NCBI RefSeq assembly: GCF_041248615.1
Contig: NZ_CP158426.1
Direction: 5' to 3' (one strand)
Source: Escherichia coli
Lineage (GTDB): Bacteria > Pseudomonadota > Gammaproteobacteria > Enterobacterales > Enterobacteriaceae
Length of the DNA: 64,000 nucleotides
Shown here piece by piece: positions 8,912-58,553 of this stretch (its first letter is position 1; the number at the start of each line of letters is the position of its first letter). A program made the position numbers and the translations under genes. A model generated the notes under the pieces. The model ran no database searches. It worked only from the letters and a program-made list of their open reading frames with translations, and was not told where the DNA came from.

Positions 8912-8969
8912 CAAATTTTTGCATCTCGCTCATGATGCCAGAGCGGGATGAATTAAAAGGAATGGTGAA

Positions 8970-9848
8970 ATGAAAACGCGTAAAGGTATTATTCTGGCTG
9001 GTGGTTCCGGCACTCGTCTTTATCCTGTGACGATGGCAGTAAGTAAACAACTGCTGCCGATTTATGATAAGCCGATGATTTATTATCCGCTTTCAACGCT
9101 TATGTTAGCGGGTATTCGCGATATTCTTATTATCAGTACGCCACAGGATACGCCGCGTTTCCAACAATTGTTGGGGGACGGGAGCCAGTGGGGGCTTAAT
9201 CTACAGTATAAAGTACAACCGAGTCCGGATGGCCTGGCGCAAGCGTTTATCATTGGTGAAGACTTTATTGGTGGCGATGATTGTGCACTTGTGCTTGGTG
9301 ATAATATCTTCTATGGACACGACTTGCCGAAATTAATGGAAGCTGCTGTTAACAAAGAAAGCGGTGCAACGGTATTTGCTTATCACGTTAATGATCCTGA
9401 ACGTTATGGTGTCGTGGAGTTTGATAATAACGGTACTGCAATTAGCCTGGAAGAAAAACCGCTGGAACCAAAAAGTAACTATGCGGTTACTGGGCTTTAT
9501 TTCTATGACAATGACGTTGTGGAAATGGCGAAAAACCTTAAGCCTTCTGCCCGAGGTGAACTGGAAATTACCGATATTAACCGTATTTATATGGAACAAG
9601 GACGTTTGTCTGTCGCTATGATGGGGCGTGGCTATGCATGGCTGGATACAGGGACGCATCAAAGTCTTATTGAAGCAAGCAACTTCATTGCCACCATTGA
9701 AGAGCGCCAGGGACTAAAGGTTTCCTGTCCGGAAGAAATTGCTTATCGTAAAGGGTTTATTGATGCTGAGCAGGTAAAAGTATTAGCCGAACCGTTGAAG
9801 AAAAATGCTTATGGTCAGTATCTGCTCAAAATGATTAAAGGTTATTAA
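8970..9848 (+). CDS. rmlA: Glucose-1-phosphate thymidylyltransferase RmlA
   Basis: 292-aa [14 protein letters not shown] nucleotidyltransferase motif. Confidence 0.9.
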
Positions 9849-9852
9849 TAAG

Positions 9853-10398
9853 ATGAACGTAATTAAAACTGAAATTCCTGATGTATTAATATTTGAACCA
9901 AAAGTATTTGGGGATGAGCGTGGTTTTTTTATGGAAAGCTTCAATCAGAAAGTTTTCGAAGAAGCTGTGGGGCGGAAGGTTGAATTTGTTCAGGATAACC
10001 ATTCTAAGTCTACTAAAGGAGTAATTAGAGGATTACATTTTCAATTACCACCTTATTCACAGGCAAAATTAGTACGCTGTGTAGTAGGTGAGGTATATGA
10101 CGTTGTTGTTGATATAAGGAAAGATTCTAAAACTTTTGGCAAATGGGTCGGTGTAAATCTTTCTGCTGAAAACAAGCGACAGTTGTGGATTCCAGAAGGA
10201 TTCGCCCATGGTTTTGAAGTGATTAGTGAAGTCGCTCATTTTTTATACAAAACAAATAATTATTATAATGCAACTATGGAAAAAGGTATAAGATGGGATG
10301 ATGAATATTTAGCTATTAATTGGAAAGAAAAAAAAGCGATAATCTCTGAGAAAGACATGAAACAACCATCATTCAGAGAACTTTTTGAGAAAGTTTAA
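9853..10398 (+). CDS. rmlC: dTDP-4-dehydrorhamnose 3,5-epimerase RmlC
   Basis: 181-aa ORF; cupin-like RmlC sequence (DERGFF, RGLHFQ); markedly AT-rich compared with rmlBDA. Confidence 0.85.
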   Translation: MNVIKTEIPDVLIFEPKVFGDERGFFMESFNQKVFEEAVGRKVEFVQDNHSKSTKGVIRGLHFQLPPYSQAKLVRCVVGEVYDVVVDIRKDSKTFGKWVGVNLSAENKRQLWIPEGFAHGFEVISEVAHFLYKTNNYYNATMEKGIRWDDEYLAINWKEKKAIISEKDMKQPSFRELFEKV

Positions 10399-11832
10399 TT
10401 GATGAATAACAAACTAGCCAGGCAAGGATTATTATGGAGCACAATTGAAAGGCTAGGAACGCAAGCCATACAATTATTATTAATGTTGTATTTGGGTAGG
10501 GTTCTTGGACCAAGCTCTTTTGGTTATGTTGGTATGCTAACTTTATTTCTATCATTAGCTCAGGTTCTAATTGATAGTGGATTTAGTGCAGCATTAATTA
10601 GAAAATCGGAGCGTACTGAAAAAGATTATTCGACAGTATTTATATTTAATATTTGTCTATCAATACTAATATATATTGTACTTTATTGTTTATCTTCTTA
10701 TATTGCTTTATTCTATCAAATACCTCTGCTGGAATCTTTACTTGATATTTTAGCATTAACAGTTATAGCAAATGGTCTAACTTTAATCCCCAAGATTCAA
10801 CTCACTGTAGACGTGAATTTTAAGATCCAAGCTAAAAGTTCACTTATCGCTATTACCAGTAGTAGTGTAATAGCGATAACGTTAGCTGCTTTGGGTTATG
10901 GAGTATGGACATTGGTTTTCCAATCGTTATCCTATAGTGTCATAAATTGTATTGTACTGAATATTTATAATCCATGGTATCCAAAAGAGAAATTTTGCTA
11001 TGAAACATTCAAAAAGCTATTTTCATTTAGCAGTAACTTACTAATTGCTGGAGTACTTGAAGCTTTTTATTCAAATATATATCAATTAATTATAGGGAAA
11101 TTTTTTACACCACAGCTTGTAGGGCAATTTACACAGGCTAATCAGATCTCTAGCGTACCTGCAATGACACTTACTAATATTATTCAGAGAGTAACTTATC
11201 CACTTTTTTGTAATATTTATAATGGCAAAGGGAAAATAGATGATGCTTATTTAAACACACTTAAAATTGCAGGCGTTGTAGTTTTTCCAATTCTATTAGG
11301 AATAGGTTTAATCTCGAAGCCATTAGTCTCTGTATTATTAGGAAGTGAGTGGAAATTTACATCTGATATTCTGTTTCTACTTTGTATTGCATTTATGATT
11401 TATCCTATACATGCAATAAATATTAATATCCTACAGGTTCATGGGCGAAGTGATCTTTTTTTGCGTTTGGAAATACTAAAAAAGACATTGATGACAATTA
11501 TTCTTGTCATTACGATGCAAATAAATATAAATGCAATGGTGATTGGTTTAGTTTTACACTCATATCTTTCGTGGTTTTTAAATGGATTATTTAGCCAGAA
11601 AGTATCAACGATCACAATAAGGAAGCAGTTAAAAGAGTTACTACCTATATGGTGTCTATGTTTAATTAGTGGGTTAGGTTCTAACTATATTATAAATGAA
11701 ATAAGTATGGAACCTTTATTAAATATAATATTTACTATTTTATTAAATGCCATTATATACATCACACTAATTCGAATTATGTACAAAGAAATATTTATGA
11801 CTATTATTTCTCTTATAAAAAATAAGGGCTGA
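10399..11832 (+). CDS. wzx: O-antigen flippase Wzx (polysaccharide transporter family)
   Basis: 477-aa highly hydrophobic multi-TM ORF in AT-rich O-antigen cluster, directly after rmlC. Confidence 0.75.
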   Translation: MMNNKLARQGLLWSTIERLGTQAIQLLLMLYLGRVLGPSSFGYVGMLTLFLSLAQVLIDSGFSAALIRKSERTEKDYSTVFIFNICLSILIYIVLYCLSSYIALFYQIPLLESLLDILALTVIANGLTLIPKIQLTVDVNFKIQAKSSLIAITSSSVIAITLAALGYGVWTLVFQSLSYSVINCIVLNIYNPWYPKEKFCYETFKKLFSFSSNLLIAGVLEAFYSNIYQLIIGKFFTPQLVGQFTQANQISSVPAMTLTNIIQRVTYPLFCNIYNGKGKIDDAYLNTLKIAGVVVFPILLGIGLISKPLVSVLLGSEWKFTSDILFLLCIAFMIYPIHAININILQVHGRSDLFLRLEILKKTLMTIILVITMQININAMVIGLVLHSYLSWFLNGLFSQKVSTITIRKQLKELLPIWCLCLISGLGSNYIINEISMEPLLNIIFTILLNAIIYITLIRIMYKEIFMTIISLIKNKG

Positions 11833-11834
11833 AA

Positions 11835-43080: not shown

Positions 43081-43410
43081 ATGGAAACTACCAAGCCTTC
43101 ATTCCAGGACGTACTGGAATTTGTTCGTCTGTTCCGTCGTAAGAACAAACTGCAACGTGAAATTCAGGACGTTGAGAAAAAGATCCGTGACAACCAGAAG
43201 CGCGTCCTGCTGCTGGACAACCTGAGCGATTACATCAAGCCGGGGATGAGCGTTGAAGCAATCCAGGGCATCATCGCCAGCATGAAAGGTGACTATGAAG
43301 ATCGCGTTGACGATTACATCATCAAAAATGCCGAGCTCTCCAAAGAACGCCGCGATATCTCCAAAAAGCTGAAAGCTATGGGCGAAATGAAAAACGGCGA
43401 AGCGAAGTAA
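43081..43410 (+). CDS. yeeX: UPF0265 protein YeeX (DUF496)
   Basis: [30 protein letters not shown] recognised; 109 aa from internal Met of the 131-aa ORF. Confidence 0.88.
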
Positions 43411-43424
43411 TTCCTGTTTTATTC

Positions 43425-43451
43425 AATGAGGGTTGCCTGGCAACCCTCATT
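43425..43451 (+). terminator. Perfect palindrome between convergent yeeX and pduV (probable yeeX terminator)
   Basis: aatgagggttgcc t ggcaaccctcatt, 13-bp perfect arms. Confidence 0.55.
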
Positions 43452-43510
43452 GCTCATTGTTTCTTTTCTGTGTATCACCGTCATCATTCCCATCTGATAA
43501 CCTATTGAAA

Positions 43511-43954
43511 TTAGCGACAGCCTTCTTCTGTATGCAGCAAGGCAAAAAGTTCTGCAACTCCATTGTTATTAACCGCACTGGTTACTAACACATTGTGCGC
43601 TCCAGCTTCCCGTAACCAACTTTTCACCAAAGATATTTGTTCCATGCTGGCTAAATCTGCTTTGGTGACTACTCCAATGACCGGGCGATTCATTGACGAG
43701 GTAAAGCCTGGCGAAAAAGGGGACCACGGTGCGTCCGCATTAAGCACCAGGGCGATAATGTCCGCTTCGCAGGCGCTGACCAACAGAGCACTGTAGAGGC
43801 TGCGGTTTTCGAGGTATTCGCCTGGTGTATCAATGGTGGTCGGGGACCAGACGATTGCCTGCGTTTTCTGATAATGAATATTTTCGCCACGCAGACATTG
43901 CGTGAGTGACGTTTTTCCGCACTGGCTGGGGCCGATGAGCATCATACGTTGCAT
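43511..43954 (-). CDS. pduV: Propanediol utilisation GTPase PduV (EutP/PduV family)
   Basis: 147-aa ORF with P-loop [10 protein letters not shown]; last gene of pdu operon here. Confidence 0.85.
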
Positions 43955-43958
43955 AACG

Positions 43959-44309
43959 TCAGGTCCGCGTAATGGGGCAGGCGGTAAAGCGCATCATTTC
44001 ACCCAGCGTACGGGTAACCTGGCTAAGTGCATATTCAATGGCAGAAACATCACCAGTCAGCACTACGGCACCGGTAAAACGATCAAGAAAACCGATCTCT
44101 ACAGCGCCTGATTTTGTGGCGATATCACATGCGATGATAGATGCTTCGCTGGGGGTAATTGTCAGAATGCCAATAGCAGAAACGGTGTCTGGTAAACCCA
44201 ATTTCTTAAACAGATCCTTCCCTGGATTGGCGATGACATGTGCCAGCGTGACCTGCTTACCAGGGACATATTCCTGAATCATCCGTTCAGTTGTGTGCTG
44301 AGTTGTCAT
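43959..44309 (-). CDS. pduU: Microcompartment shell protein PduU (circularly permuted BMC domain)
   Basis: [29 protein letters not shown]; 116 aa from internal Met, removing the overlap with pduT. Confidence 0.85.
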
Positions 44310-44863
44310 TATCCCTCCACCATCTGACGCCACATGGCTTCATGTGGACGGGCAATCACCGACCGATAGACCAACAAACCTTTTTCTCCCGCACGCTCGC
44401 TGGCGACAGAGACCGCGTTATTAACATCTGAAATATCGCCAGCAACCACCATGTAGCATTTACCGCCAATGCCAAAAGCCATATGCACGCGAACAAGAAT
44501 GACATTCGCAGCTTTGACAGCACAATCGGCAGCGTCAATGCAGGCGGCGACACTCCAGGTTTCGACTACGCCGACAGCCCGGTGCTGTTCAACTTGGTTC
44601 AGTCCGCTGGTTGCAGAAAGGAGGCTGGGATGAATATTCGGCAGGACAAGACTGTCGACCAGCATTTCACCAGCAAGGGAAGCACCGCTGTTGATGGCCT
44701 GTTGCACCGCGCCCACATCGCCACCGAGCATCAGCAGAAATTTTCCGGGGCATAGCGTTTTGCTGACCAGTAACTCAACGTTGGCGCTTTTCAGCATGGC
44801 GTCGCCGGTTTCCATCCCTTTCGCGATACTGCTAAGTTCTAAAATACCTACCGCTTTCGACAT
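44309..44863 (-). CDS. pduT: Microcompartment shell protein PduT (tandem BMC, Fe-S)
   Basis: 184-aa ORF with two BMC-like repeats ([29 protein letters not shown]). Confidence 0.88.
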
Positions 44864-44865
44864 CG

Positions 44866-46209
44866 TTAACCTCTCACAAGCGTAATCGCGTTTTCTGTCA
44901 CATCGCTGACCATGCCATCAATACTGGCATGAATGGGGGCACCTAATGTGCCGTGTGGAATTTGACCTACACATTGCCCATGAACGACGCGATCGCCTTT
45001 TTGTACACACGCAATTGCGCTGGCACCGATGTGCTGGCGTAACAATAACGTCACTTTTTCGGTCTGAGGCACCTGTTCAGACAATGGCGCATCCTGATAC
45101 CACGGGGTTAAGCCAAGTCTGGTTACCAGCCGTTTTACGGGAATCAGTCGATAATTTGCCATGGGATCTGCAGGATTTAAGGTACCTTCGTAACGGAGAT
45201 TTTGTGCGCGTAATTCTTGCTTAAGCAGGCGGTTTATGCGCATTGGTGAAATTCCTACCGGACAGGCGACGCTGGCGCAGACGTTGCACTCCGAACAGGT
45301 GAGCGCCGTCAGTAACAGTTGTGGCGTAGCGAGCTGTTGGTAGTTAACCGCACGTACTAATAAATGGGGTGCCAGTTCGTGACCGATTAAATGACGTGGG
45401 CAGAGATCGGTACACAAGCGGCATTGCTCACAAACAGTTTTCGCGACGGCAAGTACGCTGCGGTCATTCTGCATTCGACGTTGGATCAGTGAATGAGAGT
45501 TGGGTAAAACCAGCAAGCCGCCAGTGGTTTTGCTGACTGGTGTGTCGAGCGATGTGATCAAACTTCCCATCATCGGCCCGCCATTGATAAAACCAGGAGC
45601 ATCCACTGTTGCGCCGCCCGCCAGCGCCAGGACTTCACGTAAAGACATGCCGATGGGGACGGTTACCGTTATTGGTTTCGCCACTGCACCATTAACGGTG
45701 AGTGTGCGGCGCGTCACTGGATACTGTTGCTCGACGGCTCTGGCAATATTAAGTACGGTTTGAACATTATTGACCACCACACCGACGTTAACGGGTAATG
45801 CAGCGGGTGGAACACGGCGACCAGTTGCCATCCAGATGGTCAGCACTTCGTCTCCTGCGGGGTAAACGTCGGGCAAAATATGCAGGCGGATATCCGGTGG
45901 TAACAGTGGTGTGAGTGCGTTTATTGCCCGTTGATATTTCTCTTTCAGCGCGATGATTCCGCTACTGGCCCCGGTGGCTTTCATCGCATAGTGAACACCG
46001 CGAAGCAGGCGGCTGGCTTGCTGCGCCATTAACTGTTGATCCACTTTCAACATTGGTTCGCATTCCGCCGCATTCACCAGGAACGTGTCAACACGCGCTT
46101 GTAGCTTAATATGGGTTGGGAAACCTGCGCCGCCAGCACCCACGACACCAGCTGCCTGTACTCGCTCGCGGATGGTCTGGTCGTCGCAGGAGGTTAACTC
46201 GACGTTCAT
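44866..46209 (-). CDS. pduS: Cobalamin reductase PduS (RnfC-like flavoprotein with two 4Fe-4S clusters)
   Basis: 447-aa [15 protein letters not shown] and [13 protein letters not shown] ferredoxin-type motifs. Confidence 0.88.
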
Positions 46210-47318
46210 AACAACTCCTCGAGCAGTTCTGCAATAGCGGTGGCATCAGCCGTACGCGGGTTGGTACGCAACGTTGCATCCGCCAGTGCCGCCTGAACCA
46301 TATCTGGTATGCGTATTGACCATTCTGCTTTTTTTTCTTTCAGCACATTGGTAAGAGTCGGTAGCTTACAGGTTGTTTTAAGCTGTTCAATATGTTGAAT
46401 AAGTATATTCAGGCTGGCGGTGTCATTGGCGTTGTCCGGGCATAAATGGCACGTTTTCGCCAGCCGGGCGTAGCGTTTGGCAGCGCGCGGATCGCCAGCA
46501 TTAAAGCGGATAACCGCCGTGAGCAGGAGCGCATTCGCCAGGCCGTGTGGCAGATGAAACTGTCCGCCGAGTTGATGAGCAATTGCATGGTTTAATCCCA
46601 GTCCAGCCTGGCTAAAGGCCATTCCTGCAAGTGTCGATGCATTATGCATTTTGCCACGGGTGGCGAGACAATCGCCTTTCTTCACTGCAGTGGGCAGGTA
46701 TTGAAAAACAATTTGCACGGCTTTTTCGACCAGTGCATCCGTGAAGTCGCTGGCGCGGGGAGAAACATAAGCTTCAAGCGCATGGGTTAAAACATCCATC
46801 CCGGTATTGGCCGTTATCGCCGGTGGCACGCTGACGATCAGAGATGGATCAAGGATCGCGATATCCGGATAAAGTGCATTATCGAAAAGGGGATATTTAA
46901 TCCCTTTCTCAGGATCGCTGATGACACAAGCACTGGTCACTTCGGAACCGGTACCGCTGGTGGTAGGAATGGCTACGCAGGTTTCAATTTCAATGCCACA
47001 CTGGCGACCGAACCAGACAATCGCTTTTGCGGCGTCCAGGGCAGAACCGCCGCCAAAACCGATAACCACATCCGGGCGTAAAGTCTGCATTTGCGCAATG
47101 CCTTTCACCACGGTCTGGATAGTTGGGTCGGGCGTTATTTCGCTAAAAATACTAAGACGATTACTGTCGGGCAGCGCCTGATGCAACGTGTTAATGAGTG
47201 GTGAGCGTGCCAGAAAGACGTCGCAAATAATCCAGATGTGTTTATGAGAGAAACGGCTAAGTACCTTGAGACTTCCCGGTCCGCTGTATAAACGCGTCTG
47301 CAGTGAAAAAGTATTCAT
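46206..47318 (-). CDS. pduQ: 1-propanol dehydrogenase PduQ (iron-containing alcohol dehydrogenase)
   Basis: 370-aa ORF; GFGGGSALDAAKA Fe-ADH motif; 4-nt overlap with pduS. Confidence 0.88.
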   Translation of the reverse strand: MNTFSLQTRLYSGPGSLKVLSRFSHKHIWIICDVFLARSPLINTLHQALPDSNRLSIFSEITPDPTIQTVVKGIAQMQTLRPDVVIGFGGGSALDAAKAIVWFGRQCGIEIETCVAIPTTSGTGSEVTSACVISDPEKGIKYPLFDNALYPDIAILDPSLIVSVPPAITANTGMDVLTHALEAYVSPRASDFTDALVEKAVQIVFQYLPTAVKKGDCLATRGKMHNASTLAGMAFSQAGLGLNHAIAHQLGGQFHLPHGLANALLLTAVIRFNAGDPRAAKRYARLAKTCHLCPDNANDTASLNILIQHIEQLKTTCKLPTLTNVLKEKKAEWSIRIPDMVQAALADATLRTNPRTADATAIAELLEELL

Positions 47319-47328
47319 TTCCGTTTCT

Positions 47329-48714
47329 CTAGCGAATTGAAAAGCCGCTGGTTAACACGCAGCGTCGTGAGCGGGCAAAAGTCCGTGCTGACGTTGTCCC
47401 TTCTCCGGTCGGTGTTGCAATGGTAAAGGTCGTAAAGCCTTCGCCGCCGACGCCAATACCCGCCCAGGAGGGGCCGTTTTTGACAAAGATTGAGGTTTGC
47501 ATAACGCGTGCGGTAAGGTTGAGCCGTGAGACGTTCTGCGAGTGCATAATTGCCGTGTGGTGCAAGCCGTCTTCCACTTTCAGCGCCAGGGTGAGAGCGC
47601 TATCAAAATCGTTGACCTTCACAATGGGCAGCATTGGCATCAGTTGTTCACAAGTAACCCAACTATCATTGGCGTCGACAACAGCAATCAGTAGGCGCGG
47701 CGCTTTTGCGGGCAAAGGGAGGCCTGCCGCTTCCAGCAAGGCTGATGGGCTTTTCCCAACCAGTTTTTTGTTGGCGCTACCGTCTGGCAGGCAAATTGCA
47801 CGCAATTTCTCCGTTTGCTCATAGTTAAGAAGAAGCGCGCCAAAACTTTGCATCTGCTGAATTAAATAATCTGCCACTGATGCCACGACAATCAGGCTTT
47901 TTTCAGCAATACACGGCAGGTTGTAATCAAATGAAGCGCCGTTGATGATGTCCTCGGCGGCTTTCACAATATCCGCCGTTTCATCGACGATGCACGGAGG
48001 GTTACCCGCTCCGGCACCAATCACTTTCTTGCCACTTTTCATTCCCATGGCGACGATCCCCGGACCGCCGGTAATCGCCAGAACGCTGATTTTAGGGTGC
48101 GCCATCATCTGTTCGGTTGCAGCAAAGGTCGGTTCAGATACGGTAACGATCAGGTTATGAATGCCACTACAACGAAACGCGATGTCTTCGATTGTGGTAA
48201 TCAGTTTTAACGAAACGTATTTGGCTCCCGGGTGTGGACTGAAGTAGACGCTATTACCTGCTGCCAGCATGCTGATGCTGTTGTTAATGATGGTTTCCGT
48301 GGGGTTGGTGCTTGGCGTGACCGAGCCAATAACCCCAAACGGGGAGTATTCAAACAAAACCATGCCACCATCACCGGTTAGTGCAGTGGTGGTTAAATCT
48401 TCAATTCCTGGCGTGTTATCAAGTGCCGCTTTGTTTTTTAGGTACTTATCTTCTTTATTTCCCATCCCCGTTTCTTTGGCGCTTTCTTCTGCCAGTTCGG
48501 TCAGGCGGGGTATTAATTCTTCGCGAATGGCGCTGATAATGGCGCTACGGGTTTTAAGCGGGCACTGTTGAAAGCGTAAAAAGGCCTGGTGTGCTGCGCA
48601 GACCGCTTCATCAACAGTCTGGAAAATAGCGTTTCTTTGCATTCGTTGCGTAGCGGGGGCAAGCTGCTCACGCAGAATATTGCGGATCAGTGTTTCTAAT
48701 TCAGAGTTATTCAT
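47329..48714 (-). CDS. pduP: CoA-acylating propionaldehyde dehydrogenase PduP
   Basis: 461-aa aldehyde dehydrogenase-family ORF in conserved position between pduO and pduQ. Confidence 0.88.
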   Translation of the reverse strand: MNNSELETLIRNILREQLAPATQRMQRNAIFQTVDEAVCAAHQAFLRFQQCPLKTRSAIISAIREELIPRLTELAEESAKETGMGNKEDKYLKNKAALDNTPGIEDLTTTALTGDGGMVLFEYSPFGVIGSVTPSTNPTETIINNSISMLAAGNSVYFSPHPGAKYVSLKLITTIEDIAFRCSGIHNLIVTVSEPTFAATEQMMAHPKISVLAITGGPGIVAMGMKSGKKVIGAGAGNPPCIVDETADIVKAAEDIINGASFDYNLPCIAEKSLIVVASVADYLIQQMQSFGALLLNYEQTEKLRAICLPDGSANKKLVGKSPSALLEAAGLPLPAKAPRLLIAVVDANDSWVTCEQLMPMLPIVKVNDFDSALTLALKVEDGLHHTAIMHSQNVSRLNLTARVMQTSIFVKNGPSWAGIGVGGEGFTTFTIATPTGEGTTSARTFARSRRCVLTSGFSIR

Positions 48715-49718
48715 TGGTTTACTCCCACGTTAATTGCCGCCATTGCGCTTTGGGCAATATCCATGTCTTGTTCAACGCTACCACCGCTGATGCCAAGCCC
48801 CCCGAGCAATATTCCGTCACGCCAGAGGGGGAAGCCGCCACCAAAGGTGACGACTTTGCCTTGCATATGGCTTTCGAGCCCGTAAAGCGGCGCGCCGGGT
48901 TGCACGGTATCAGCAAGTTTGTGGGTTGCCGTTTTCATCGCCACGGCAGTCCAGGCTTTTTTCGGTGCCAGTTCACTGCTGACCAACAGGGCATCAGGCA
49001 TCCGCCAGGTAACACTTTCTGTTCCGTTGGCATCAACAATGCTGATGACAACGGGAATATGCAGTTCATCCGCGCGCATTGCCGCACTACGAATGAGCTG
49101 GTGAAGATCCTGAAAAGTGAGCGGCATTGTGCGTTCCTTCAATGCTGGTGTGTGGTTGGCTTTGTGATAACGTTTTGTGATTTCCTGAATTATCAGGTTT
49201 TGATGAGCGACGTTGTCTTCCACGCGGGCGAGGGCATACAGGCAATCGGAAAGTCGGTTGATATAGTGCAGCAAAACATTCCGGACGGTGATTTCCGTTG
49301 TCAGTTCAACCAGACGTCTTTCAGCACGTCGAGCCACCGTGCGGGCGAAATGCATACGGCTTGCAGCTTCACATCGCCCAGGCAGAATGAAGCTGTGAAC
49401 TGGGGGGACGGCGTTCATTGCGCTATCGATCGCGTTTTCCAGCGCGGCAATTTCTTCCGTACCGATGTAACGCAGCTGCGCTGACGGCTGTTCGCTTTCA
49501 CTGGCAAGTTCGGCGCTAAACCAAAATATCTGTTGTTGAATGGCTTCCAGTAAGATGCGATGGCTTTCGATGGCGGTGGCGCAATAACACAGACTGAGTG
49601 TCGCGTTCAGTTCATCCAGCGTGCCATAGGTTTCGACACGTAGATGAGTTTTGCTGACGCGCTGTCCGGTAAATAAAGACGTACTTCCTGAATCACCTGT
49701 TCGGGTATAAATTGCCAT
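48711..49718 (-). CDS. pduO: ATP:cob(I)alamin adenosyltransferase PduO
   Basis: 335-aa ORF; PduO-type N-terminus MAIYTRTGDSGSTSLFTGQRVSK plus C-terminal DUF336-like domain. Confidence 0.88.
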   Translation of the reverse strand: MAIYTRTGDSGSTSLFTGQRVSKTHLRVETYGTLDELNATLSLCYCATAIESHRILLEAIQQQIFWFSAELASESEQPSAQLRYIGTEEIAALENAIDSAMNAVPPVHSFILPGRCEAASRMHFARTVARRAERRLVELTTEITVRNVLLHYINRLSDCLYALARVEDNVAHQNLIIQEITKRYHKANHTPALKERTMPLTFQDLHQLIRSAAMRADELHIPVVISIVDANGTESVTWRMPDALLVSSELAPKKAWTAVAMKTATHKLADTVQPGAPLYGLESHMQGKVVTFGGGFPLWRDGILLGGLGISGGSVEQDMDIAQSAMAAINVGVNQ

Positions 49719-49729
49719 CTTTCAGCTCC

Positions 49730-50005
49730 TTAGCGCGAAAGCGTATCGACAATGCCGACCACTGCCAGGTCGATGGCCTCGTTAGGGCCGGAAAACACAT
49801 GTCTGGCGCTGGAACCACTGCTGAGGAGTACCAACTCACCAACGCCTGCGCCGACTGAATCAACGGCAACTTCGTCGCCGGTTAATGGCGTGAGAGGCAG
49901 TTCGCCGTCAGCACTGACCCGGCGAACCAGCAGCAGTTTTTTCCCGATCAGAGATGGTGATTTTTGCGTGGATACTACCGCGCCAGTGACTCGAGCCAGA
50001 TGCAT
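49730..50005 (-). CDS. pduN: Microcompartment vertex protein PduN (EutN/CcmL pentamer family)
   Basis: 91-aa [30 protein letters not shown]. Confidence 0.88.
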
Positions 50006-50008
50006 AGG

Positions 50009-50500
50009 TTACTCCTGCCTAATTAACTGAATATTTCGGGTAATTGCCGCTTCACGAGCCAGTGCGGTCACACAACATTTCCGCTGTAACACCAGTATTC
50101 CCGAGCTTAACTGTGCGATATCGGCATAACTTAAAAGTCGATCACGATGAAGGTAGATCGGTTGCCCTTGTTCGTCGCACCAGCTTAGCGGTAGACGGGC
50201 GAGAGTCTTCAATTCAATGGCGTTCAGGAAATGACGCTGCAACGACAATTGAATGTGCATTCCCCAGGCTAACGCTTCGTGTATCTGGATTGCTGCTCGA
50301 TCTGACGTTTCGTTCTCCGCAAGTTGTCGCAGCAGCGGCAGATCGACATATCGGATTTGTAATGACGCATACTGATGAACGCTCTCTTGAACGCTGGCGT
50401 CTCGCAGTTGAAAAACAGTCAGCACGAGTGCTTTTCTCGCACGTTGTTTAAGGCGAAAAACCACCTCGTCAACAATACGTTGCATCAGCATGTTATTCAT
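50009..50500 (-). CDS. pduM: Microcompartment structural protein PduM
   Basis: 163-aa ORF in conserved position between pduL and pduN. Confidence 0.8.
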   Translation of the reverse strand: MNNMLMQRIVDEVVFRLKQRARKALVLTVFQLRDASVQESVHQYASLQIRYVDLPLLRQLAENETSDRAAIQIHEALAWGMHIQLSLQRHFLNAIELKTLARLPLSWCDEQGQPIYLHRDRLLSYADIAQLSSGILVLQRKCCVTALAREAAITRNIQLIRQE

Positions 50501-51129
50501 GGCACTGACACCAGTGTGGCAAAAACGTCAGGGCTATCAGCGCCTGCGGCGTTGGCCTCATCGGTATCAATATGCATTTCAAGACGCATATCCGGAGAGA
50601 CGCGAACAGCGACGTTTTCGAATATCAGTCGTCGCTCACCACCTTCAATGGCAACCGCCACTTTATCGCCATGCGTAACGCCATAAATCAGGGCATCCAG
50701 CGGAGACATATGAATATGCCGTTGCGCGACAATGACGCCAGATGTGATCTCCAGTTCCGCAAATGGGCTTATCAAACGAATCCCCGGAGTGCCGCTGAGA
50801 TCGCCTGACATGCGTAGCGGGGCGGTGATCCCTAACGTTCTGGCGTCCGTCCGGGAAATTTCCACCTGGCTTGCATTGCGTAGCGGCCCCAACAAGCGAA
50901 CGTTGTGCAATTTGCCTTTTGGTCCCTCCAGCGTAACAACCTGTTCAGCAGCGAATTGGCCAGGTTGCATTAACGGCTTTTTCTCGCTAATCGGTTGTTC
51001 AGGAAAAAGACGCAAATAATCCGCTGTTGAAAGATGAATATGGCGACTGGAAACGCCCAGTGGGATAGGGCGCTCGCGCATCTCATCCAGAATCTGGCTC
51101 ACTGTTTCCTGCAGGGTTTGTTTATCCAC
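50497..51129 (-). CDS. pduL: Phosphate propanoyltransferase PduL
   Basis: 210-aa ORF, conserved position; PduL/EutD-type acyltransferase. Confidence 0.85.
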   Translation of the reverse strand: MDKQTLQETVSQILDEMRERPIPLGVSSRHIHLSTADYLRLFPEQPISEKKPLMQPGQFAAEQVVTLEGPKGKLHNVRLLGPLRNASQVEISRTDARTLGITAPLRMSGDLSGTPGIRLISPFAELEITSGVIVAQRHIHMSPLDALIYGVTHGDKVAVAIEGGERRLIFENVAVRVSPDMRLEMHIDTDEANAAGADSPDVFATLVSVP

Positions 51130-51131
51130 TG

Positions 51132-51554
51132 CTACTCCCCTCGCTTATTGGCGTACAGGCAAAGTGAGCGGGGCTCACCTTTTTGCCGCTGACATGCCGG
51201 GTCAAGACACAAATTACAACTGATAATCTCTGAGGTGACGGTTGTTGCTGGTGTTTTGCTTGTTTCAACCGTCACGGTCAATGCTTCAATTGTGTGGGGC
51301 AGAATGCCGTCTCCCGGGCGGGCAATCACTTTGTGTGCGACAAGGCCATTTCGCTGTCCGGCGAAACTGGCTCCCGTCGCGATCGCCGCATTAACCGAGG
51401 CGACGTCACCGGTGATTTTGATGAGCGTCCAGCCTGAGCCATTGGTCTTCTCAAGGCCAACCAGCGTGATGGACGCGGCTTTTGCCATAGCGTCTGCGCA
51501 ACTGATGGCGAGAGCCAGACCACTGACTTCAAGTAATCCCAGTGATTGCTTCAC
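51132..51554 (-). CDS. pduK: Microcompartment shell protein PduK (BMC domain with Cys-rich C-terminal tail)
   Basis: 140-aa ORF, N-terminal BMC domain (MKQSLGLLEVSGLALAISCADAMAKAASI), C-terminal CNLCLDPAC. Confidence 0.85.
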   Translation of the reverse strand: MKQSLGLLEVSGLALAISCADAMAKAASITLVGLEKTNGSGWTLIKITGDVASVNAAIATGASFAGQRNGLVAHKVIARPGDGILPHTIEALTVTVETSKTPATTVTSEIISCNLCLDPACQRQKGEPRSLCLYANKRGE

Positions 51555-51577
51555 GCTGTGCTCCTTAGCGAATGGGG

Positions 51578-51853
51578 TTATGCTGATTTAGGTAAAATAG
51601 CCTCAACATCACTGTGTGGGCGCGGGATGACATGGCAGGATTTCACTTCGCCAACGGCGCTTGCGGCGGCGCTTCCTGCATCAACGGCGGCTTTTACTGC
51701 GCCAACATCGCCACGGACCATCACCGTAATCAGACCCGAACCAATCTTTTCATAGCCAACCAGCTGCACGTTGGCGGATTTAACCATGGCATCTGCAGCT
51801 TCAATTGCGCCAACTAACCCTTTTGTTTCAACCAGTCCTAGTGCGTTGTTCAT
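51578..51853 (-). CDS. pduJ: Microcompartment shell protein PduJ (BMC hexamer)
   Basis: 91-aa [32 protein letters not shown]. Confidence 0.9.
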
Positions 51854-51872
51854 ACTGCATTTCTCCTGTGGA

Positions 51873-52223
51873 TTATGAGTGGAGTTCCCGGAAGGGAATC
51901 CCTTTTACCAGGCGGGCAGCGTTAGAGCCAATGCTGCGCCGGGCATGGTTATCTTGTTGATACATCAGCGTAAACAGTGGCGCTGATGCCGGTAAGTTTT
52001 TGTAATGCACAATCAGTTTTTCCTGATCGCAGGCAATGCCAACCAACAGGGGAGATTGACTAGCAGCCAGCCAGGCGCTATCGATAACTTCACCTGACGG
52101 AATGTGTTGAATGCGAAAGGGAATACCTTCCTCTTCAATGCCAAGAAGCACCTCATCCCATATAGTGATGCAGTTACCGATCTCCATGACGACGATGGCT
52201 GGTGCACGCTCTTTACTTTCCAT
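51873..52223 (-). CDS. pduH: Diol dehydratase reactivase small subunit PduH
   Basis: 116-aa ORF, overlaps pduG 3' end; conserved position. Confidence 0.85.
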
Positions 52224-54045
52224 GAATCGACTCCTTGTGCCAGGCGATGAGTAGCCCAGTAGCTACCGCGTTGCGCGGACCTTCGCTACCACGGATATTC
52301 CCCCGTCCGGCGACCAATCGATAATGCGCCAATGCATCGGTGACTAACTGCGGTACTTCGAAATCCAGCGAAGAACCGCCCACCAGAACGACGAACGGAA
52401 TATCGCGAATATTTCCGGCAGGGCTTACCTGACGTAGCGCGCGCAGGGCATTGGTTACGAAGACACGCTCTTTCGCACTGCGGCGGACAGCGCGTACTTT
52501 TTCCAGCGTCAAATCACCGGGAATGGGCACCAGTTCGTCGGGTTTCACTACACAGACGCGGGCAAATACATGGGGGGATAGGGGAGTAGGGAAGAACTGA
52601 ACGCTGCCATCTTCATGGCGTAAGTGGAACAGGCTTTCTACTTTTGCCAACGGGTACTTTTTGATTTCTTCTGCCAGATAACGATCATTTAAGCCCAGCT
52701 CACGAGCGATAATCATCGTTACCATGTCGCCCGCTCCCGCAAGGTGAGTGGCAACAATTTCTCCTTTCTGATTGATGATGGAGGCATCGGTAGAGCCTGC
52801 ACCTAAGTCCAGAATTGCCAGTGGACGTGTGGTTCCAGGGGTAGTCAAGGCCCCCTGAATGGCGGCTTCTGCTTCTGCGCCTCCGACCTGAACATCAACA
52901 TGCAGTTTTTGCTTAATTTCACTGGCGATCATTGCCATTTGCAGACGGTCGGATTTCACCATAGAGGCAATACCCACAGCCTGTTCCAGTGAAAATTCAC
53001 CTGCCAGACCGCCGGTTACGCTGACGGGGACAGAGGTATCTATCGCCAGCAAATCCTGAATAAAAATTTCGTTGCTGGGTTTGTTGGTCAGTTCCGCCAT
53101 GGTCTGGCGAACATGTTCCAGCATTCCGCCGATGTTGGTGCCTGGTTTTCCCGTCACGTTTTCCAGTTTTGGGCACTCACCGACCGCTTTCATAATGGCA
53201 TCGGCACCAGCAGCTACATCAACGCGCGTTGTGCGCCCGGCAGAAAGCAGTTCGATATTTCCGGCGGGTATCGAACGGGCTTTAACGTCGCCAGAAGGCG
53301 TTTTCACTACCACTGCTGAACGGTTGCCGATTAGCGCCCGCGCGACAGGAACAATATTTTTAGTCTCTTCAGCATTGAGGGCGAAAACGGTGGCAATCCC
53401 ATACGGGTTAGACAGGGTTTCGATAACTTTCCCGGGAACGGCAACTTCAATTGCAGCCAGCATGCCGAGCGGAATACGATCGATGTAGAGGACTTCATCA
53501 ACAATAGGTACAGCAATTTCCAGGCGGTTACTGACCAGCACGCCATCGTCGCGTTGCAGAATAACGCCAGTCAGCTGATATCCGGCACGTACGGAGGCGT
53601 TTATCATCGTCGCGATATCGGCAAAATCAAATGCCGATGACACCACCAGGATGTAAGGTGTGTCCGCCGGGCGTGTTAATAACTCTTGCGGAGTGATGGT
53701 GAGCCCTACGCCCAGCCCCACTCCGCCCGGAGTTTTCGGGTTGTGACCGATCATGGTTGATTCAGTGATGATGGTTTCAGTGATGGTTTCCATCGCCACA
53801 TCACCAATGACCGGAGTTGCTTCGTTGATACGAATAAGCGAAATATCGCTAACATTGATGCCGACTTTTTTCGTTGCCTGTGCGAGCGCCTCCTGAATAC
53901 CATGGACGTTACGCAACGTACCTTTAATTCCGGTGGTTTCCGCCAGGGCGCTACTCACGAACGACAACTCTCCAGTTGCACTGAGCGTTGCCAGCGCAAC
54001 CTCTGTTGATGAGTTGCCGATATCAATGCCTGCTATATATCGCAT
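52213..54045 (-). CDS. pduG: Diol dehydratase reactivase large subunit PduG
   Basis: 610-aa ORF, MRYIAGIDIGNSSTEVALA actin-like ATPase N-terminus. Confidence 0.9.
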   Translation of the reverse strand: MRYIAGIDIGNSSTEVALATLSATGELSFVSSALAETTGIKGTLRNVHGIQEALAQATKKVGINVSDISLIRINEATPVIGDVAMETITETIITESTMIGHNPKTPGGVGLGVGLTITPQELLTRPADTPYILVVSSAFDFADIATMINASVRAGYQLTGVILQRDDGVLVSNRLEIAVPIVDEVLYIDRIPLGMLAAIEVAVPGKVIETLSNPYGIATVFALNAEETKNIVPVARALIGNRSAVVVKTPSGDVKARSIPAGNIELLSAGRTTRVDVAAGADAIMKAVGECPKLENVTGKPGTNIGGMLEHVRQTMAELTNKPSNEIFIQDLLAIDTSVPVSVTGGLAGEFSLEQAVGIASMVKSDRLQMAMIASEIKQKLHVDVQVGGAEAEAAIQGALTTPGTTRPLAILDLGAGSTDASIINQKGEIVATHLAGAGDMVTMIIARELGLNDRYLAEEIKKYPLAKVESLFHLRHEDGSVQFFPTPLSPHVFARVCVVKPDELVPIPGDLTLEKVRAVRRSAKERVFVTNALRALRQVSPAGNIRDIPFVVLVGGSSLDFEVPQLVTDALAHYRLVAGRGNIRGSEGPRNAVATGLLIAWHKESIHGK

Positions 54046-54054
54046 AGTTCGTCC

Positions 54055-54573
54055 TTAATCGTCGCCTTTCAGTTTTTTGCGCTCGACATAAAGTTCCGCA
54101 GCTTCACGGACAAATGCAGCACAAATTTTGGCCTGATAACGCCGTTCAAGATCGTCAGCAATGGCAATAAGTTCTTGCTTAGTCGAACGATAAGGGCGTA
54201 ACGCATTGTAGATTTCGAGGATGCGATCATCCGGTACTGAGGTAAGCTCAGCGGCGCGTTCAAAATTCATCGCCAGGCGATCGCGACCAGCATCTCTGGC
54301 AATCGCGGCCTGAATACGCAATGTTTCAGGGGTTATACGCATATCCTGGGCGGTGACGTTATCGCTGAGTACATTTTCCAGAGTGAAATCGTCGAGCGTT
54401 TTATTGGTCGCCGTTTTAACCCATTCCGGATGTTTATTTGCCAGCGGATAATCCGTCACTTTGGCGCTCTGTATTGACGCGTTGGGTGCCGCAGAAACAG
54501 GAGCTGCATCCTGTAAACTGTTCATGCGATTCAACACGTCCCTGACCATCGACTCAATTGCATCGGTATTCAT
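54055..54573 (-). CDS. pduE: Propanediol dehydratase small (gamma) subunit PduE
   Basis: 172-aa ORF, conserved position. Confidence 0.88.
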   Translation of the reverse strand: MNTDAIESMVRDVLNRMNSLQDAAPVSAAPNASIQSAKVTDYPLANKHPEWVKTATNKTLDDFTLENVLSDNVTAQDMRITPETLRIQAAIARDAGRDRLAMNFERAAELTSVPDDRILEIYNALRPYRSTKQELIAIADDLERRYQAKICAAFVREAAELYVERKKLKGDD

Positions 54574-54587
54574 GAAGGTTTCCTTTG

Positions 54588-55256
54588 TTAAAACGTCACG
54601 CGCAGTTCTTGCGGTTTTTTGCCAGTGACCACGTACTTCGTCTCTTTAATATGCAAAATGGCAGATTTGGCCTGGTATTTCGGCCGCGCCATTTGATCGT
54701 TGAGGGTCGGCACCGGTTGTGGAGACTCACGCTTTGCATAACGCGCGGCGTTTTTGCCAATCTGACGATAAGTTTCCAGCGTCAACAAAGGCGCTTGTGG
54801 GAATAGTTCCAGGTTAGACAAGGGAGGAAGACCTTGCTGGTGGATAACCGTTGTGCCTTTCGACTGAATACCGATAGCAATACCTGAACCACTAAGACGA
54901 TCGCCTTCGACTGCTACGAATGCGACATCGGACGATTTAAAGCAGCGAATCACACGGGCTTTAATGCCTTCTTCTTCGATACCAGCAATCACTTCGCGCA
55001 AGATGTTTTTATGCGGAATACCGATGATATTGACGGTTTGCGCCAGGCCGAACGCCGGGCCTACAGCAATAATGACTTCATCTTGCTGAGTGCCTTGTTG
55101 GGCTTCGCCAATTTCGGCCAGAAAAGTTCCGGTATCTGGCGCGGAAGAGACAGTTGCACAGGCAGGTGCGCGAAATGAAACGGGCTTGTCGCTGGTTTGC
55201 ATTTCTGCCAGCACGTCTTCGATAATCTGACGCAGTAATTTTTCGTTAATTTCCAT
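54588..55256 (-). CDS. pduD: Propanediol dehydratase medium (beta) subunit PduD
   Basis: 222-aa [22 protein letters not shown]. Confidence 0.9.
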
Positions 55257-55265
55257 TTCTCACCC

Positions 55266-56930
55266 TTAGTCAATTTCGTTGGGATCAAGTGCACCGGGAA
55301 TATTTTTGATCTCTTCCCAGCGTTCCCCTTGCAGGCGGTAACCTGTAGCCGGTCCGGCGTAATCATTGACGTCATTGACCGCAGAGAGCACTTGTCCGTC
55401 ATCGACGATGATGGCTGAGGTATGGAGATAATCGCCGGTCAGTTTTGCTTTTTGCATGTTGAGCATGTCTTGGGCGACATCGGTAAAACCGCCTTGCGCC
55501 AGGGCTTTCACCACTTCCAGGCTGTTCCGGTTTTTATTGATAATCTCCTGGGCGAACTTGATGTCTTCCACAATATTGCGCTCAGGCATATCTTTTGAAC
55601 CGTGGGCATAGGTTGCCGCTTCGACTTCTTCATCGGTAATAGGCGGTAGTCCCATACCGGCAAAGACAGCCTGTAAAGCGCGAGCGGCTTTATTGCGGAT
55701 AGCGATAACATCTTCTTCGCGTACTGGTCGCAGGCCGCCATCAACCTTCAGGTCACGCTGAATGACGTTGTAATCATCGAAGTCTTCAGCATCTTCGTTT
55801 GAACCAGCAAACATGTTGTCGTAGTTCGGCACAGCGGAAAAACCGGAAGAGATAAAGTCGGTACCTGGCAGAAACTGCATCAGGAAACGTGCGGTACGGC
55901 GCATATCCGAGTGGGTAAAGGTCTGGTCATTACTGGAGGCGCATTCCAGATCCAGCGATGAGCAAATTAAGTTTTCCGCTAATACTGCGCGGATGCCTGA
56001 TGGCACAGCCGATGGAACACCGATGCAGCTTACCGAACCATTCTGTAGACCCTGAACTCCTGCGGCTTTGGTGATGTAAATGCAACGAGCCTCGAGATAA
56101 AGCATTGATTTGCCTTCCGCGTAACCCATCTGTACTTCAGAGCCGGAGCCGGAAGTAAAGCGCATTTTTAAGCCGCGAGACGCATAGGATGACGCGAGAA
56201 ATCCTTTTGACCACGGGGTGTCATCGCCATCGGTGAAAACAGGTTCTGTACCATAGACAGAAATTGTTTCGGCGTAACAGGTGTGGCCTAACATACCGAG
56301 TTTCAGTTCGGTGGCTTCTTCCAGTGAACACTGGGTCAAGACGCCCGGACGTCCCACCTGTGAGCCGACCAGCAGGGCGATGGCGTTGAACGGGGCATAG
56401 CGAGCAACGGCAACGGTGGTTTCCTGTTCATCAAACCCGCGCCATGCGCCTTCAGCTGCGTCGGCGGCAATTTGTACCGGGTTATCTTTGACGTTGGTGA
56501 CGTGAGCCTGTTGTGATGGTGTTCGACGGGCGCGCATTTTCTGCATCGCCATCATCATCTCTACCACGTTCATCTGCGAAACAACTTCGACGATTTTTGC
56601 AGGCGTCATTGCTGTGGTAAGGGGAACGATATCGCTACGTTTGACATTTGGATCGCACAACATATTGGCAAGTTTTACCGAATCCATCGCGATGACTTCT
56701 TCTGCACGCGCGAGATTGATGCCGTAGCGGGCGATAAAGTGGTCGATCAGGTCAAACTGGCTGGCGGGTTTTCCATCCAGTTCGGTAACGACGCCGTTAA
56801 CAATTTTGATTGACGGTTTAGGATCGTTCGGGCTTTCCATCGCAATGAAGCCTTCTTCAATCCACTCTTTAACGAAACCGTCCTGGTTGACCGGGCGTTT
56901 TGCCAGTGCTTCAAATCTTTTCGATCTCAT
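55266..56930 (-). CDS. pduC: B12-dependent propanediol dehydratase large (alpha) subunit PduC
   Basis: 554-aa ORF MRSKRFEALAKRPVNQDGFVKEWIEEGFIAMESPNDPKPSIK recognised. Confidence 0.92.
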   Translation of the reverse strand: MRSKRFEALAKRPVNQDGFVKEWIEEGFIAMESPNDPKPSIKIVNGVVTELDGKPASQFDLIDHFIARYGINLARAEEVIAMDSVKLANMLCDPNVKRSDIVPLTTAMTPAKIVEVVSQMNVVEMMMAMQKMRARRTPSQQAHVTNVKDNPVQIAADAAEGAWRGFDEQETTVAVARYAPFNAIALLVGSQVGRPGVLTQCSLEEATELKLGMLGHTCYAETISVYGTEPVFTDGDDTPWSKGFLASSYASRGLKMRFTSGSGSEVQMGYAEGKSMLYLEARCIYITKAAGVQGLQNGSVSCIGVPSAVPSGIRAVLAENLICSSLDLECASSNDQTFTHSDMRRTARFLMQFLPGTDFISSGFSAVPNYDNMFAGSNEDAEDFDDYNVIQRDLKVDGGLRPVREEDVIAIRNKAARALQAVFAGMGLPPITDEEVEAATYAHGSKDMPERNIVEDIKFAQEIINKNRNSLEVVKALAQGGFTDVAQDMLNMQKAKLTGDYLHTSAIIVDDGQVLSAVNDVNDYAGPATGYRLQGERWEEIKNIPGALDPNEID

Positions 56931-56948
56931 AAATCTGCCTCAGAGAAT

Positions 56949-57761
56949 TCAGATGTAGGAAGGGCGATCGTTTTTCGGTGTATCGCCGAGAGTCGAAAGC
57001 ACGGTTTTACCGATTTCGCGTGCGGAGATGACCGCCTGGCGGACTGCGCCGGAGTCACCCGAGATAATCAGAATGACTTCATTGCTGTAGCTGGTGCCTT
57101 GAGCGGGGGAGCTGTATGCCACAACATCCACATTGGCGGACTTCAGCGCGGTGTCTGCCATCAGAACACCCACAGCAGCCGGAGCGCCGACAATAACGCC
57201 GCAAGCCCGTCCCAATGGTGCACCAAACGCTTTTTCCAGTGCATAGCTGGCGCGGGCGGTATATTGCAGCTCAAGATGTCCGGCTTCGTTGGCATAGACA
57301 TCGCCAAAGGTTCGATCGAGTTCTTTCAGGGCAACTTCAATACCGCGTTTCACGTCGGAAACATCGTTGCCACCTAAGAGGATCAATGAGCCGTGTCCGG
57401 CACCGCCTTTAGTATCGCGAGGAAGTTCAATGCTAATAACTTCAGTGTTGGTGGCTTTTACCGCTTCATCAGCGGCCATAATGTGTGGACCTGCGCCAAT
57501 ACGCGCACCCAGAATGCCAATGGAACGATAGCGTTTTTCAAGTTTCATTGCGTCCAACAGGGCGCTATCAACGTTCGCAATGACCAGACCTACAGTGTCG
57601 CCAATAGCGGTGCCAACAAATTCTGTTAATGTGCAGCTTTTTTCTGCCATAGCCGTCTCTCGTATTTGATGAGTGGTTTTCGGGAGAACCTCATGCTCTG
57701 GCGTCGCTACGCGAGCGATGACCTGCGCCATGATCTGTTCGACCAGTTCATTGCTGCTCAT
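56949..57761 (-). CDS. pduB: Microcompartment shell protein PduB (tandem BMC trimer); internal in-frame start for PduB' at 57650
   Basis: 270-aa ORF; internal Met at codon 38 ([13 protein letters not shown]) matches the known PduB' start. Confidence 0.9.
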
Positions 57762-58042
57762 GGGTTAATTCCCTTTGGTAAGATTTTTTCGACATCGGTA
57801 TGTGGGCGGGGAATAACATGTACGGCTTTTACTTCGCCGACGTTACGCGCAGCTGCGGCACCTGCGTCTGTTGCCGCTTTTACCGCCCCGACATCACCAC
57901 GAACGATGACGGTCACCAGCCCGGAACCTATTTTTTCGTAGCCGACCAGCAAAACATTTGCCGACTTCACCATGGCGTCTGCGGCCTCTATGGCGGCAGT
58001 TAAGCCTTTGGTTTCTACCATTCCTAACGCTTCTTGTTGCAT
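57758..58042 (-). CDS. pduA: Major microcompartment shell protein PduA (BMC hexamer)
   Basis: 94-aa [33 protein letters not shown]. Confidence 0.92.
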
Positions 58043-58553
58043 AAAGACCTCGCCTGGATTTTTTTGACGATATGACTATAAAAAAAAGCGAGGAAAAAGA
58101 ATGGCTGACTTAATCGGCTAATGAGAAAAATTAATAGAGAACAAATATTATAAAATTGCTTTTATGAACTATATGTTGTTAATTTATTAGTTGTTTTGTG
58201 GATATTTCAATGTGAATTAATTGCGTTGGCTAGTGAGTTTAATCGCGAGTAATATTTCGTTGAGTTTAGTTCGAGGAAGGAACTGTGATATTTGTTTCAA
58301 TTTTATTATATCATGATGGCAATTTTTTATTGTGAAAGTTTGACAGTAATTATTACTTTCAACACTGATTAACGCTGTGTTGCATGATTCGGCAATGACA
58401 ATAATTTGTTATGTTAGCACGATTTTTACACGAGTCTGTCATGCATGTTGGCAATATTTTCTGCAGAGCAATTTTTTATAGTTGCGCTCGGTATACACAA
58501 CAATCAGCGCATAGTTGGCTGATAAAGAAAAACTCCGTAAAGAAGGTGTCACT
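58043..58553. promoter_or_regulatory. AT-rich divergent control region between pduA (minus) and pduF (plus); expected pdu and pduF-pocR promoters
   Basis: About 510 bp non-coding, strongly AT-rich with multiple A/T tracts; in the Salmonella pdu/cob regulon this region holds PocR-, Crp- and ArcA-responsive promoters. Confidence 0.55.

Follow-up and report, generated by a model that had tools for sequence, protein, structure and literature searches.

The 64,000-nucleotide stretch of Escherichia coli DNA analysed here, referred to as the window (from contig NZ_CP158426.1), carries in order the his operon, sbcB, dacD, sbmC, yeeA, tmaR (yeeX), the pdu operon, pocR and cobUST. The name tmaR is the one that RefSeq gives to yeeX in the identical segment of KE55. 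This gene occupies positions 43081 to 43410 on the plus strand, terminates with a TAA at 43408-43410 and encodes a DUF496 protein of 109 residues (Pfam PF04363, E 2e-45), which is 97% identical to YeeX of Citrobacter. Facing it on the minus strand, at 43511 to 43954, is pduV, the final gene of the pdu operon. The 147-residue product belongs to the EutP/PduV family of GTPases, with residues 1-141 covered by the family models (PF10662, E 2e-55; TIGR02528) and a score of 187 bits as against cut-offs of 21 and 138. The genes pduU, T, S, Q, P, O, N, M, L, K, J, H, G, E, D, C, B and A follow at 43959 to 58042 on the same strand, assigned from the list of open reading frames (ORFs) and the RefSeq annotation of the near-identical KE55 locus, and every ORF from pduA to pduV is intact. 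Divergent from pduA, on the plus strand at 58515 to 60480, are pduF, the diffusion facilitator, and pocR (59566-60480), encoding an AraC-type regulator. Only two features lie between pocR and cobU. A cobalamin riboswitch, the leader of the cob operon, is found at 60572 to 60746 on the plus strand (Rfam RF00174, 109.4 bits, E 6e-27) and is also annotated in KE55. An ORF of 168 residues at 60896 to 61402, likewise on the plus strand, is an N-terminal stub of cbiG and the sole remnant of cbiA-cbiP. The corrinoid salvage and nucleotide-loop assembly genes cobU, cobS and cobT, taken from the ORF list and the KE55 annotation, complete the locus at 61536 to 63912 on the plus strand.

Some peripheral features of the window deserve mention. 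The pduP gene is an intact ORF of 461 codons (47329-48714, minus strand). RefSeq treats the KE55 copy (L001, 24430-25815) as a pseudogene with an internal stop, despite a junction between tmaR and pduV that is 100% identical to the window over 1.1 kb; the two sequences differ elsewhere. The intergenic region between pduF and pocR gives an Rfam match to the enterobacterial sRNA STnc230 (59422-59505, minus strand, 71 bits against a gathering score of 50). Positions 1 to 24000 carry the colanic acid genes and an O7-family O-antigen cluster. On this O-antigen side the best matches among complete genomes are 99.8% identical and span about 2.8 kb more than the query, which indicates an indel difference.

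The gene ends at 43410 and 43511 leave a convergent intergenic spacer of exactly 100 bp (43411-43510). The first-pass annotation had proposed that the operon stops at pduV, with neither pduW nor pduX before yeeX, and that the two convergent genes are separated by 100 bp containing a perfect palindrome. The ORF map, the gene ends and the palindrome itself uphold each of these points. Searching the 64-kb window by tblastn at E ≤ 1e-5 with Citrobacter proteins located PduV, YeeX and YeeA and produced no match to PduW or PduX.

This arrangement has been described. Axen, Erbilgin and Kerfeld (2014; PMC4207490, supplement) defined a PDU1B locus type, with E. coli E24377A, LF82 and UMN026 and Shigella sonnei 53G and Ss046 as members, as having "all pdu genes except PduX and PduW", cobSTU only, PocR, a YkuD-like gene and flanking yeeX/yeeA (PMC4207490). 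The window has pduA to pduV intact and, by tblastn, no pduW or pduX. Its cob operon is reduced to cobU, cobS and cobT, reached from pocR through the riboswitch and the cbiG stub; pocR is present, tmaR/yeeX and yeeA are adjacent, and the YkuD-like ldtA follows cobT in the identical KE55 locus. There is no substantive difference from the definition, and the window locus is an ordinary, already published member of the PDU1B type. The PDU1A locus of Salmonella LT2 and Citrobacter, in contrast, reads pduABCDEGHJKLMNOPQSTUVWX, with a pduW of 404 codons and a pduX of 288 to 300 codons that Escherichia lacks. The window operon is without these terminal genes, for a propionate kinase (pduW) and an L-threonine kinase (pduX), and has no adjacent cbi genes, pocR and cobU being separated by 1,055 bp; Salmonella and Citrobacter carry cbiA-P in that interval.

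The palindrome lies at 43424 to 43452 on the plus strand and starts 13 nt past the tmaR stop codon. Its two 14-nt arms (43424-43437 and 43439-43452; CAATGAGGGTTGCC / GGCAACCCTCATTG) are 100% complementary and are separated by a single nucleotide. As RNA it folds into a 13-bp stem with a loop of 3 nt at -21 kcal/mol (z = -5.2), and none of 200 dinucleotide shuffles folded as well. Read in the direction of tmaR, a consensus scan finds it terminator-like, with a 13-bp stem, seven GC pairs and the tail CTCATTGTTT; the T-rich sequence 3′ of the hairpin on this strand is CTCATTGTTTCTTTTCTG. In the direction of pdu the hairpin is followed by AAUAAAACAGG, without a U-tract, and the scan is positive on the plus strand only. 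With this tail on the minus strand the hairpin lacks the form of a canonical intrinsic terminator for pdu transcription. On these sequence features it is probably the intrinsic terminator of tmaR, and may also be the structure at the 3′ end of the pdu transcript.

Across seven Escherichia lineages 97.8% of cells in the hairpin alignment are paired and two pairs are compensatory, A-U to G-C in E. albertii and G-C to A-U in E. whittamii. In a control, 22 of 500 shuffles did as well. The support that the alignment gives for maintenance of the structure is modest but consistent. Citrobacter carries a shorter homologous hairpin, GGGTCGC...GCGACCC, after the pduX stop. A scan of the spacer against Rfam matched no known RNA family. 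The conserved spacer and hairpin may do more than terminate tmaR, either as the source of a 3′-end-derived RNA or as a barrier against antisense read-through into tmaR from a strongly induced operon of 14.5 kb.

A 1.1-kb query spanning the junction finds yeeX, the spacer and the 3′ end of pduV together in 5,417 of 5,426 complete E. coli genomes, always at 95% identity or higher. The full pduV gene is covered in 842 of these, and most of the remaining matches end at query position 794, corresponding to 43693 in the window. K-12 (C600) is an example. It has tmaR, the same 100-bp spacer with its hairpin, and a 183-bp stub of the pduV 3′ end, known as yoeF, that is about 98% identical to the last 183 bp of the window gene. 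In K-12 and some 85% of E. coli genomes everything upstream of about codon 87 of pduV has been replaced, whereas the window operon is complete. The K-12 stub (L002, 6612-6994) abuts a transposase and remnants of the CP4-44 prophage, and the sequence that replaces upstream pduV there is the end of that prophage. The breakpoint at 43693 is common to most pdu-negative E. coli, which suggests either one ancestral replacement that spread or a recombination hotspot. We also note that a contig from a metagenome-assembled genome (MAG) labelled Planctomycetota (L029, JADFIX010000334.1) matches the K-12 yoeF-tmaR junction base for base in the aligned stretch and is almost certainly E. coli contamination.

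Beyond E. coli, the Escherichia lineages in which homologous spacers with the hairpin were seen are E. albertii, E. whittamii, the cryptic 'E. coli' E69, in which the junction is about 90% identical, and Escherichia sp. MOD1. Comparison of the pduV/yeeX junction, which the first-pass annotation had suggested as a check, shows the short form in all sampled Escherichia and pduV-pduW-pduX-yeeX in Citrobacter. On this sampling the absence of pduW and pduX is a fixed state of the genus Escherichia and not a peculiarity of the window genome. A junction fixed across the genus implies that the most recent common ancestor of Escherichia was already without both genes. Its presence as yoeF even in pdu-negative E. 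coli marks it as an ancient state, and as a sign that E. coli once universally carried pdu.

What looks like decay is seen in the pdu and cob loci of other Escherichia species (L006, L033, L036 and L039). E. albertii has pduO in two pieces, a pduQ that runs on into pduS and a shortened PduV of 143 residues. In TW07627 pduA is cut by IS1; one strain is without called cobU and cobT. In E. marmotae pduC is split.

Outside Escherichia, the order pduV-pduW-pduX-yeeX-yeeA is found in about 19 Citrobacter-type loci (including one MAG labelled Raoultella), in Pseudocitrobacter and in a soil enterobacterial MAG. In these loci pduV has 150 codons, pduW has 404 and starts 16 nt inside the end of pduV, overlapping its stop, and pduX has 288. 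A Salmonella contig (L046) reads pduV-pduW-pduX (300 codons)-yeeX-yeeA-sbmC-dacD; its assignment to Salmonella rests on phs thiosulfate reductase genes beyond dacD and on 2,346 cluster members. A Pluralibacter locus has pduV, pduW and pduX with no yeeX or yeeA nearby. The interval from pduX to the yeeX stop is 33 to 40 bp in Salmonella and Citrobacter, and it is pduW and pduX (about 2.17 kb in Citrobacter) that occupy the site of the 100-bp spacer of Escherichia.

The Salmonella and Citrobacter loci share with the window the orthologous dacD-sbmC-yeeA-yeeX site, the gene order from pduA to pduV and the divergent pduF-pocR pair, at a DNA identity of 73 to 82%. Between E. coli and C. braakii the pdu genes are 73 to 82% identical in DNA sequence, and the flanking yeeA, sbmC and dacD 72 to 79%. 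Between E. coli and E. albertii the corresponding values are 86 to 92% for pdu genes and 85 to 88% for flanking genes. Since pdu has diverged about as much as its flanks, the operon looks to have been inherited vertically along with them. Together with the presence of pduV-pduW-pduX at the orthologous site in outgroups, this bears out the reading of the short operon as a loss.

Where would such a deletion have begun and ended? The window PduV can be aligned with the 150-residue proteins of Citrobacter and Salmonella up to a C-terminal cysteine, and only the last two or three codons differ (...EEGCR* and ...KEPSCLTK*). This alignment would place the left breakpoint at the overlap of the pduV stop with the pduW start and leave the function of PduV unaffected. 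At the other end, the hairpin of Escherichia and the preceding GCAATGAGGGTTGCC align with the end of pduX and the hairpin of Citrobacter (GCAATAAGGGTCGCC...GCGACCC), and the sequence before the hairpin aligns also with ...CAGTGA of Salmonella, which puts the right breakpoint at about the last pduX codon. The heptamer GCAATGA at 43447 to 43453 (minus strand), which abuts the hairpin, is by positional alignment a candidate relic of the last codon and stop of pduX. Citrobacter pduX ends in GCAATAA and that of Salmonella in GCAGTGA, in both cases '...Q*', and the window heptamer may be what is left of such an end, with the caution that the match is too short for statistics.

The filler of approximately 57 to 62 nt between the pduV stop and the hairpin (43454-43510, minus strand) has no detectable similarity to pduW or pduX. 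A profile of eight Escherichia spacers run with nhmmer against the 19 Citrobacter-type pduV-yeeX regions gave matches in the flanks only (best E 0.02), namely the pduV 3′ end and the hairpin with the end of yeeX, together with a few collinear, non-significant matches inside pduX. Smith-Waterman alignment of the 62-nt filler with eight of the loci and Salmonella, set against shuffled sequence, gave z values of 2 or less and no relic of pduW or pduX. With no significant relic in some 60 nt, the case for deletion is drawn from the phylogenetic distribution and very short positional matches and not from a clear scar.

Are pduW and pduX present elsewhere in E. coli? Searching the 5,426 complete genomes with Citrobacter pduX DNA (blastn, word size 11) returned no match. 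With pduW the same search gave one real match, in strain 48; in six genomes it also hit short stretches of tdcD. Citrobacter pduT-U-V served as positive control and recovered the native operon of E. coli (77.7% identity), as well as the eutS paralogue and a 129-bp overlap with yoeF. The earlier claim that both genes are missing holds in the window and, apart from the pduW of strain 48, in these complete genomes; their absence from the rest of the window genome is extrapolated from complete genomes that are 99.8 to 100% identical over the tested segments.

Strain 48, from deer (L032, NZ_CP166879.1, 5.25-5.27 Mb), is the sole complete E. coli genome among the 5,426 with pduW. Its second pdu island, with about 77% identity to Citrobacter, ends in pduV-pduW, is then cut by IS66 and IS21 and has no pduX; this island is horizontally acquired. 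PduX proteins labelled as E. coli or Shigella, which came from a search at the protein level, were considered as surviving orthologues and rejected on context, being encoded in an IS-flanked cbi island or at another locus on a non-coli backbone, and in neither case at the yeeX junction. The island (L040, positions 1-16600, Logan ERR987359; also L041, GCA_002521365.1) carries cbiA-B-C-D-E-T-F-G-H and onward, an IS, pduX and a sirC-like gene, and continues with a cobD aminotransferase, a cobA-type methylase, btuR/cobA and IS110. The sequence flanking its far side is 96.6 to 98% identical to E. coli, and none of the 5,426 complete E. coli genomes contains the island. It is possibly a mobile module for de novo B12 synthesis. 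The second context (L043, GCA_022423985.1, labelled E. coli) is a full pdu cluster ending in pduV (150 codons)-pduW-pduX, beside a cobD-like aminotransferase gene and amiC-argA-recD-recB. Against every E. coli genome the flank reaches only 94.2% identity, which points to a non-coli lineage; the label is probably wrong, and the assembly would be that of an Escherichia other than E. coli whose pdu lies elsewhere in the chromosome.

The most serious challenge to a loss is that the short operon is ancestral and that pduW and pduX are later insertions on the line of descent to Salmonella and Citrobacter. A spacer without a significant relic of either gene is what this idea would expect, as is the short form in all sampled Escherichia. 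Yet pduV-W-X-yeeX-yeeA is found in Salmonella, many Citrobacter, Pseudocitrobacter and the more distant soil enterobacterial MAG, and Klebsiella, Raoultella, Kluyvera and Yokenella have PduX homologues of 70 to 78% identity. The cbiG stub and the orphaned cob riboswitch are decay products of a fuller ancestor. In addition, Escherichia PduV diverges exactly where pduW overlaps the pduV stop in Citrobacter and Salmonella, and just before the Escherichia hairpin lies sequence that can be aligned with the pduX stop. We regard an ancestral short operon as very unlikely.

Relocation of one or both genes within the window genome, leaving the pathway complete, is highly improbable. It draws on the rare 'E. 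coli' assemblies that do encode PduX (the cbi-pduX-cobD island of L040 to L042 and the pduV-W-X cluster of L043) and on the second, pduW-bearing island of strain 48. However, with a working positive control, pduX is found in 0 and pduW in one of 5,426 complete E. coli genomes. Among those with no match are the nearest genomes to the window, whose O-antigen clusters are of the O7 type, and the flank of L043 marks it as a non-coli Escherichia. It is scarcely conceivable that the junction arose by a recent deletion in this strain or by faulty assembly; palindromes can promote both deletions and misassemblies, but 5,417 of 5,426 independent complete genomes, as well as other Escherichia species, have the identical architecture, with ordinary sequence divergence and compensatory changes in the hairpin. 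The parsimonious reading, as judged from sequence comparison, would be a deletion of pduW and pduX on the Escherichia stem, and we are confident that the window carries the standard Escherichia-type (PDU1B) locus produced by that ancestral loss.

The first-pass annotation had linked the loss of pduX to an absence of cbi genes. There are no functional cbi genes in the window, so that the absence stands as regards function, but the cbiG stub remains and the absence is not complete at the level of sequence. The stub ORF matches NCBIfam NF004463 (E 1e-18, 67.7 bits compared to a cut-off of 546), with residues 24 to 141 corresponding to the first 125 of 351 CbiG positions; a Pfam search of the same ORF found nothing. 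A stub of about 144 residues in the same context, between pocR and the cob genes, occurs in E. albertii and E. marmotae, and a stub of that length is found also in Shigella. Protein identity of these stubs is only 68 to 74%, a divergence that looks like decay. Its presence in E. albertii and E. marmotae indicates that the cbi deletion, like that of pduW and pduX, is genus-wide. Despite the loss of cbiA-P, cobUST may still be under control of the B12 riboswitch and the PocR region.

Corrinoid salvage through CobU does not need PduX. The enzyme is needed only for the linker in de novo B12 synthesis and, because cbi is gone, would be useless in Escherichia. Its product is L-threonine phosphate, from which CobD forms the aminopropanol-phosphate linker that CbiB uses (PMC6249242). 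The proposed link between pduX and cbi draws support from their shared distribution, both being missing throughout the genus, and independently from the L040 island, where pduX is accompanied by cbiA-H, cobD and cobA and not by pdu. It follows that pduX tracks cbi rather than pdu, having been lost with cbi across the genus and transferred with it in a rare island.

The history we propose starts from an ancestor, shared with Salmonella and Citrobacter, in which cbi-cob, pocR-pduF and pduA...V-W-X lay beside yeeX. A single deletion of about 2.1 kb, before the living Escherichia diverged, would have removed pduW and pduX almost exactly, from the overlap of the pduV stop and pduW start to the last pduX codon. 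PduV would have been left intact and the yeeX (tmaR) hairpin would have become the shared end of both convergent units, presumably with a role in termination. Separate deletions would have taken cbiA-cbiP and left the riboswitch, the cbiG stub and cobUST. PduX would have had no use once cbi was lost, if the losses fell in that order. The resulting locus would provide the microcompartment and all of the encapsulated and recycling enzymes (PduA-V) and would need imported corrinoids. The step from propionyl-phosphate to propionate and ATP, catalysed by PduW, would presumably fall to AckA and TdcD, its housekeeping paralogues.

Of the proteins that the Salmonella operon encodes, two, PduW and PduX, are cytosolic and not associated with the microcompartment (PMC7181861). 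The Escherichia operon therefore keeps exactly the organelle-associated set, and the genes removed are exactly the two that act outside the microcompartment. Two papers describe E. coli as having no equivalent of PduW, the closest protein being TdcD at 44% identity (PMC3475010, PMC7360682). AckA and TdcD belong to the enzyme family of PduW (approximately 40-44% identity; PMC3475010, PMC7360682) and share its type of reaction; they differ in being encoded outside the pdu locus and in not being co-regulated by PocR. Adherent-invasive E. coli (AIEC) that are pdu-positive produce propionate from 1,2-propanediol by way of the pdu microcompartment (PMC9220930). On the strength of this literature, substitution of PduW by AckA and TdcD in pdu-positive E. 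coli is plausible.

Loss of a dedicated propionate kinase co-regulated by PocR may have physiological consequences in pdu-positive Escherichia. If so, propionyl-phosphate leaving the microcompartment would depend on AckA and TdcD. Larger pools of propionyl-phosphate, with non-enzymatic propionylation of proteins, would be possible, or else a shift of flux to propionyl-CoA and the methylcitrate cycle, with a contribution to propionate-linked phenotypes of AIEC. Considered jointly, a physiological consequence of losing PduW or an extra role for the spacer and hairpin is distinctly unlikely.

As a discovery the short operon carries little weight, the PDU1B type having been defined in 2014 and being visible in hundreds of annotated genomes. 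To that definition the analysis adds a description of the junction at sequence level, which is fixed in the genus and survives as yoeF in strains that lack pdu, as well as approximate positions for the breakpoints, the cbiG stub and, from a rare island, the association of pduX with cbi. For those who work with the native E. coli pdu system, whether on AIEC or in microcompartment engineering, the locus is strictly one of corrinoid salvage, and recovery of ATP from propionyl-phosphate would fall to housekeeping kinases.
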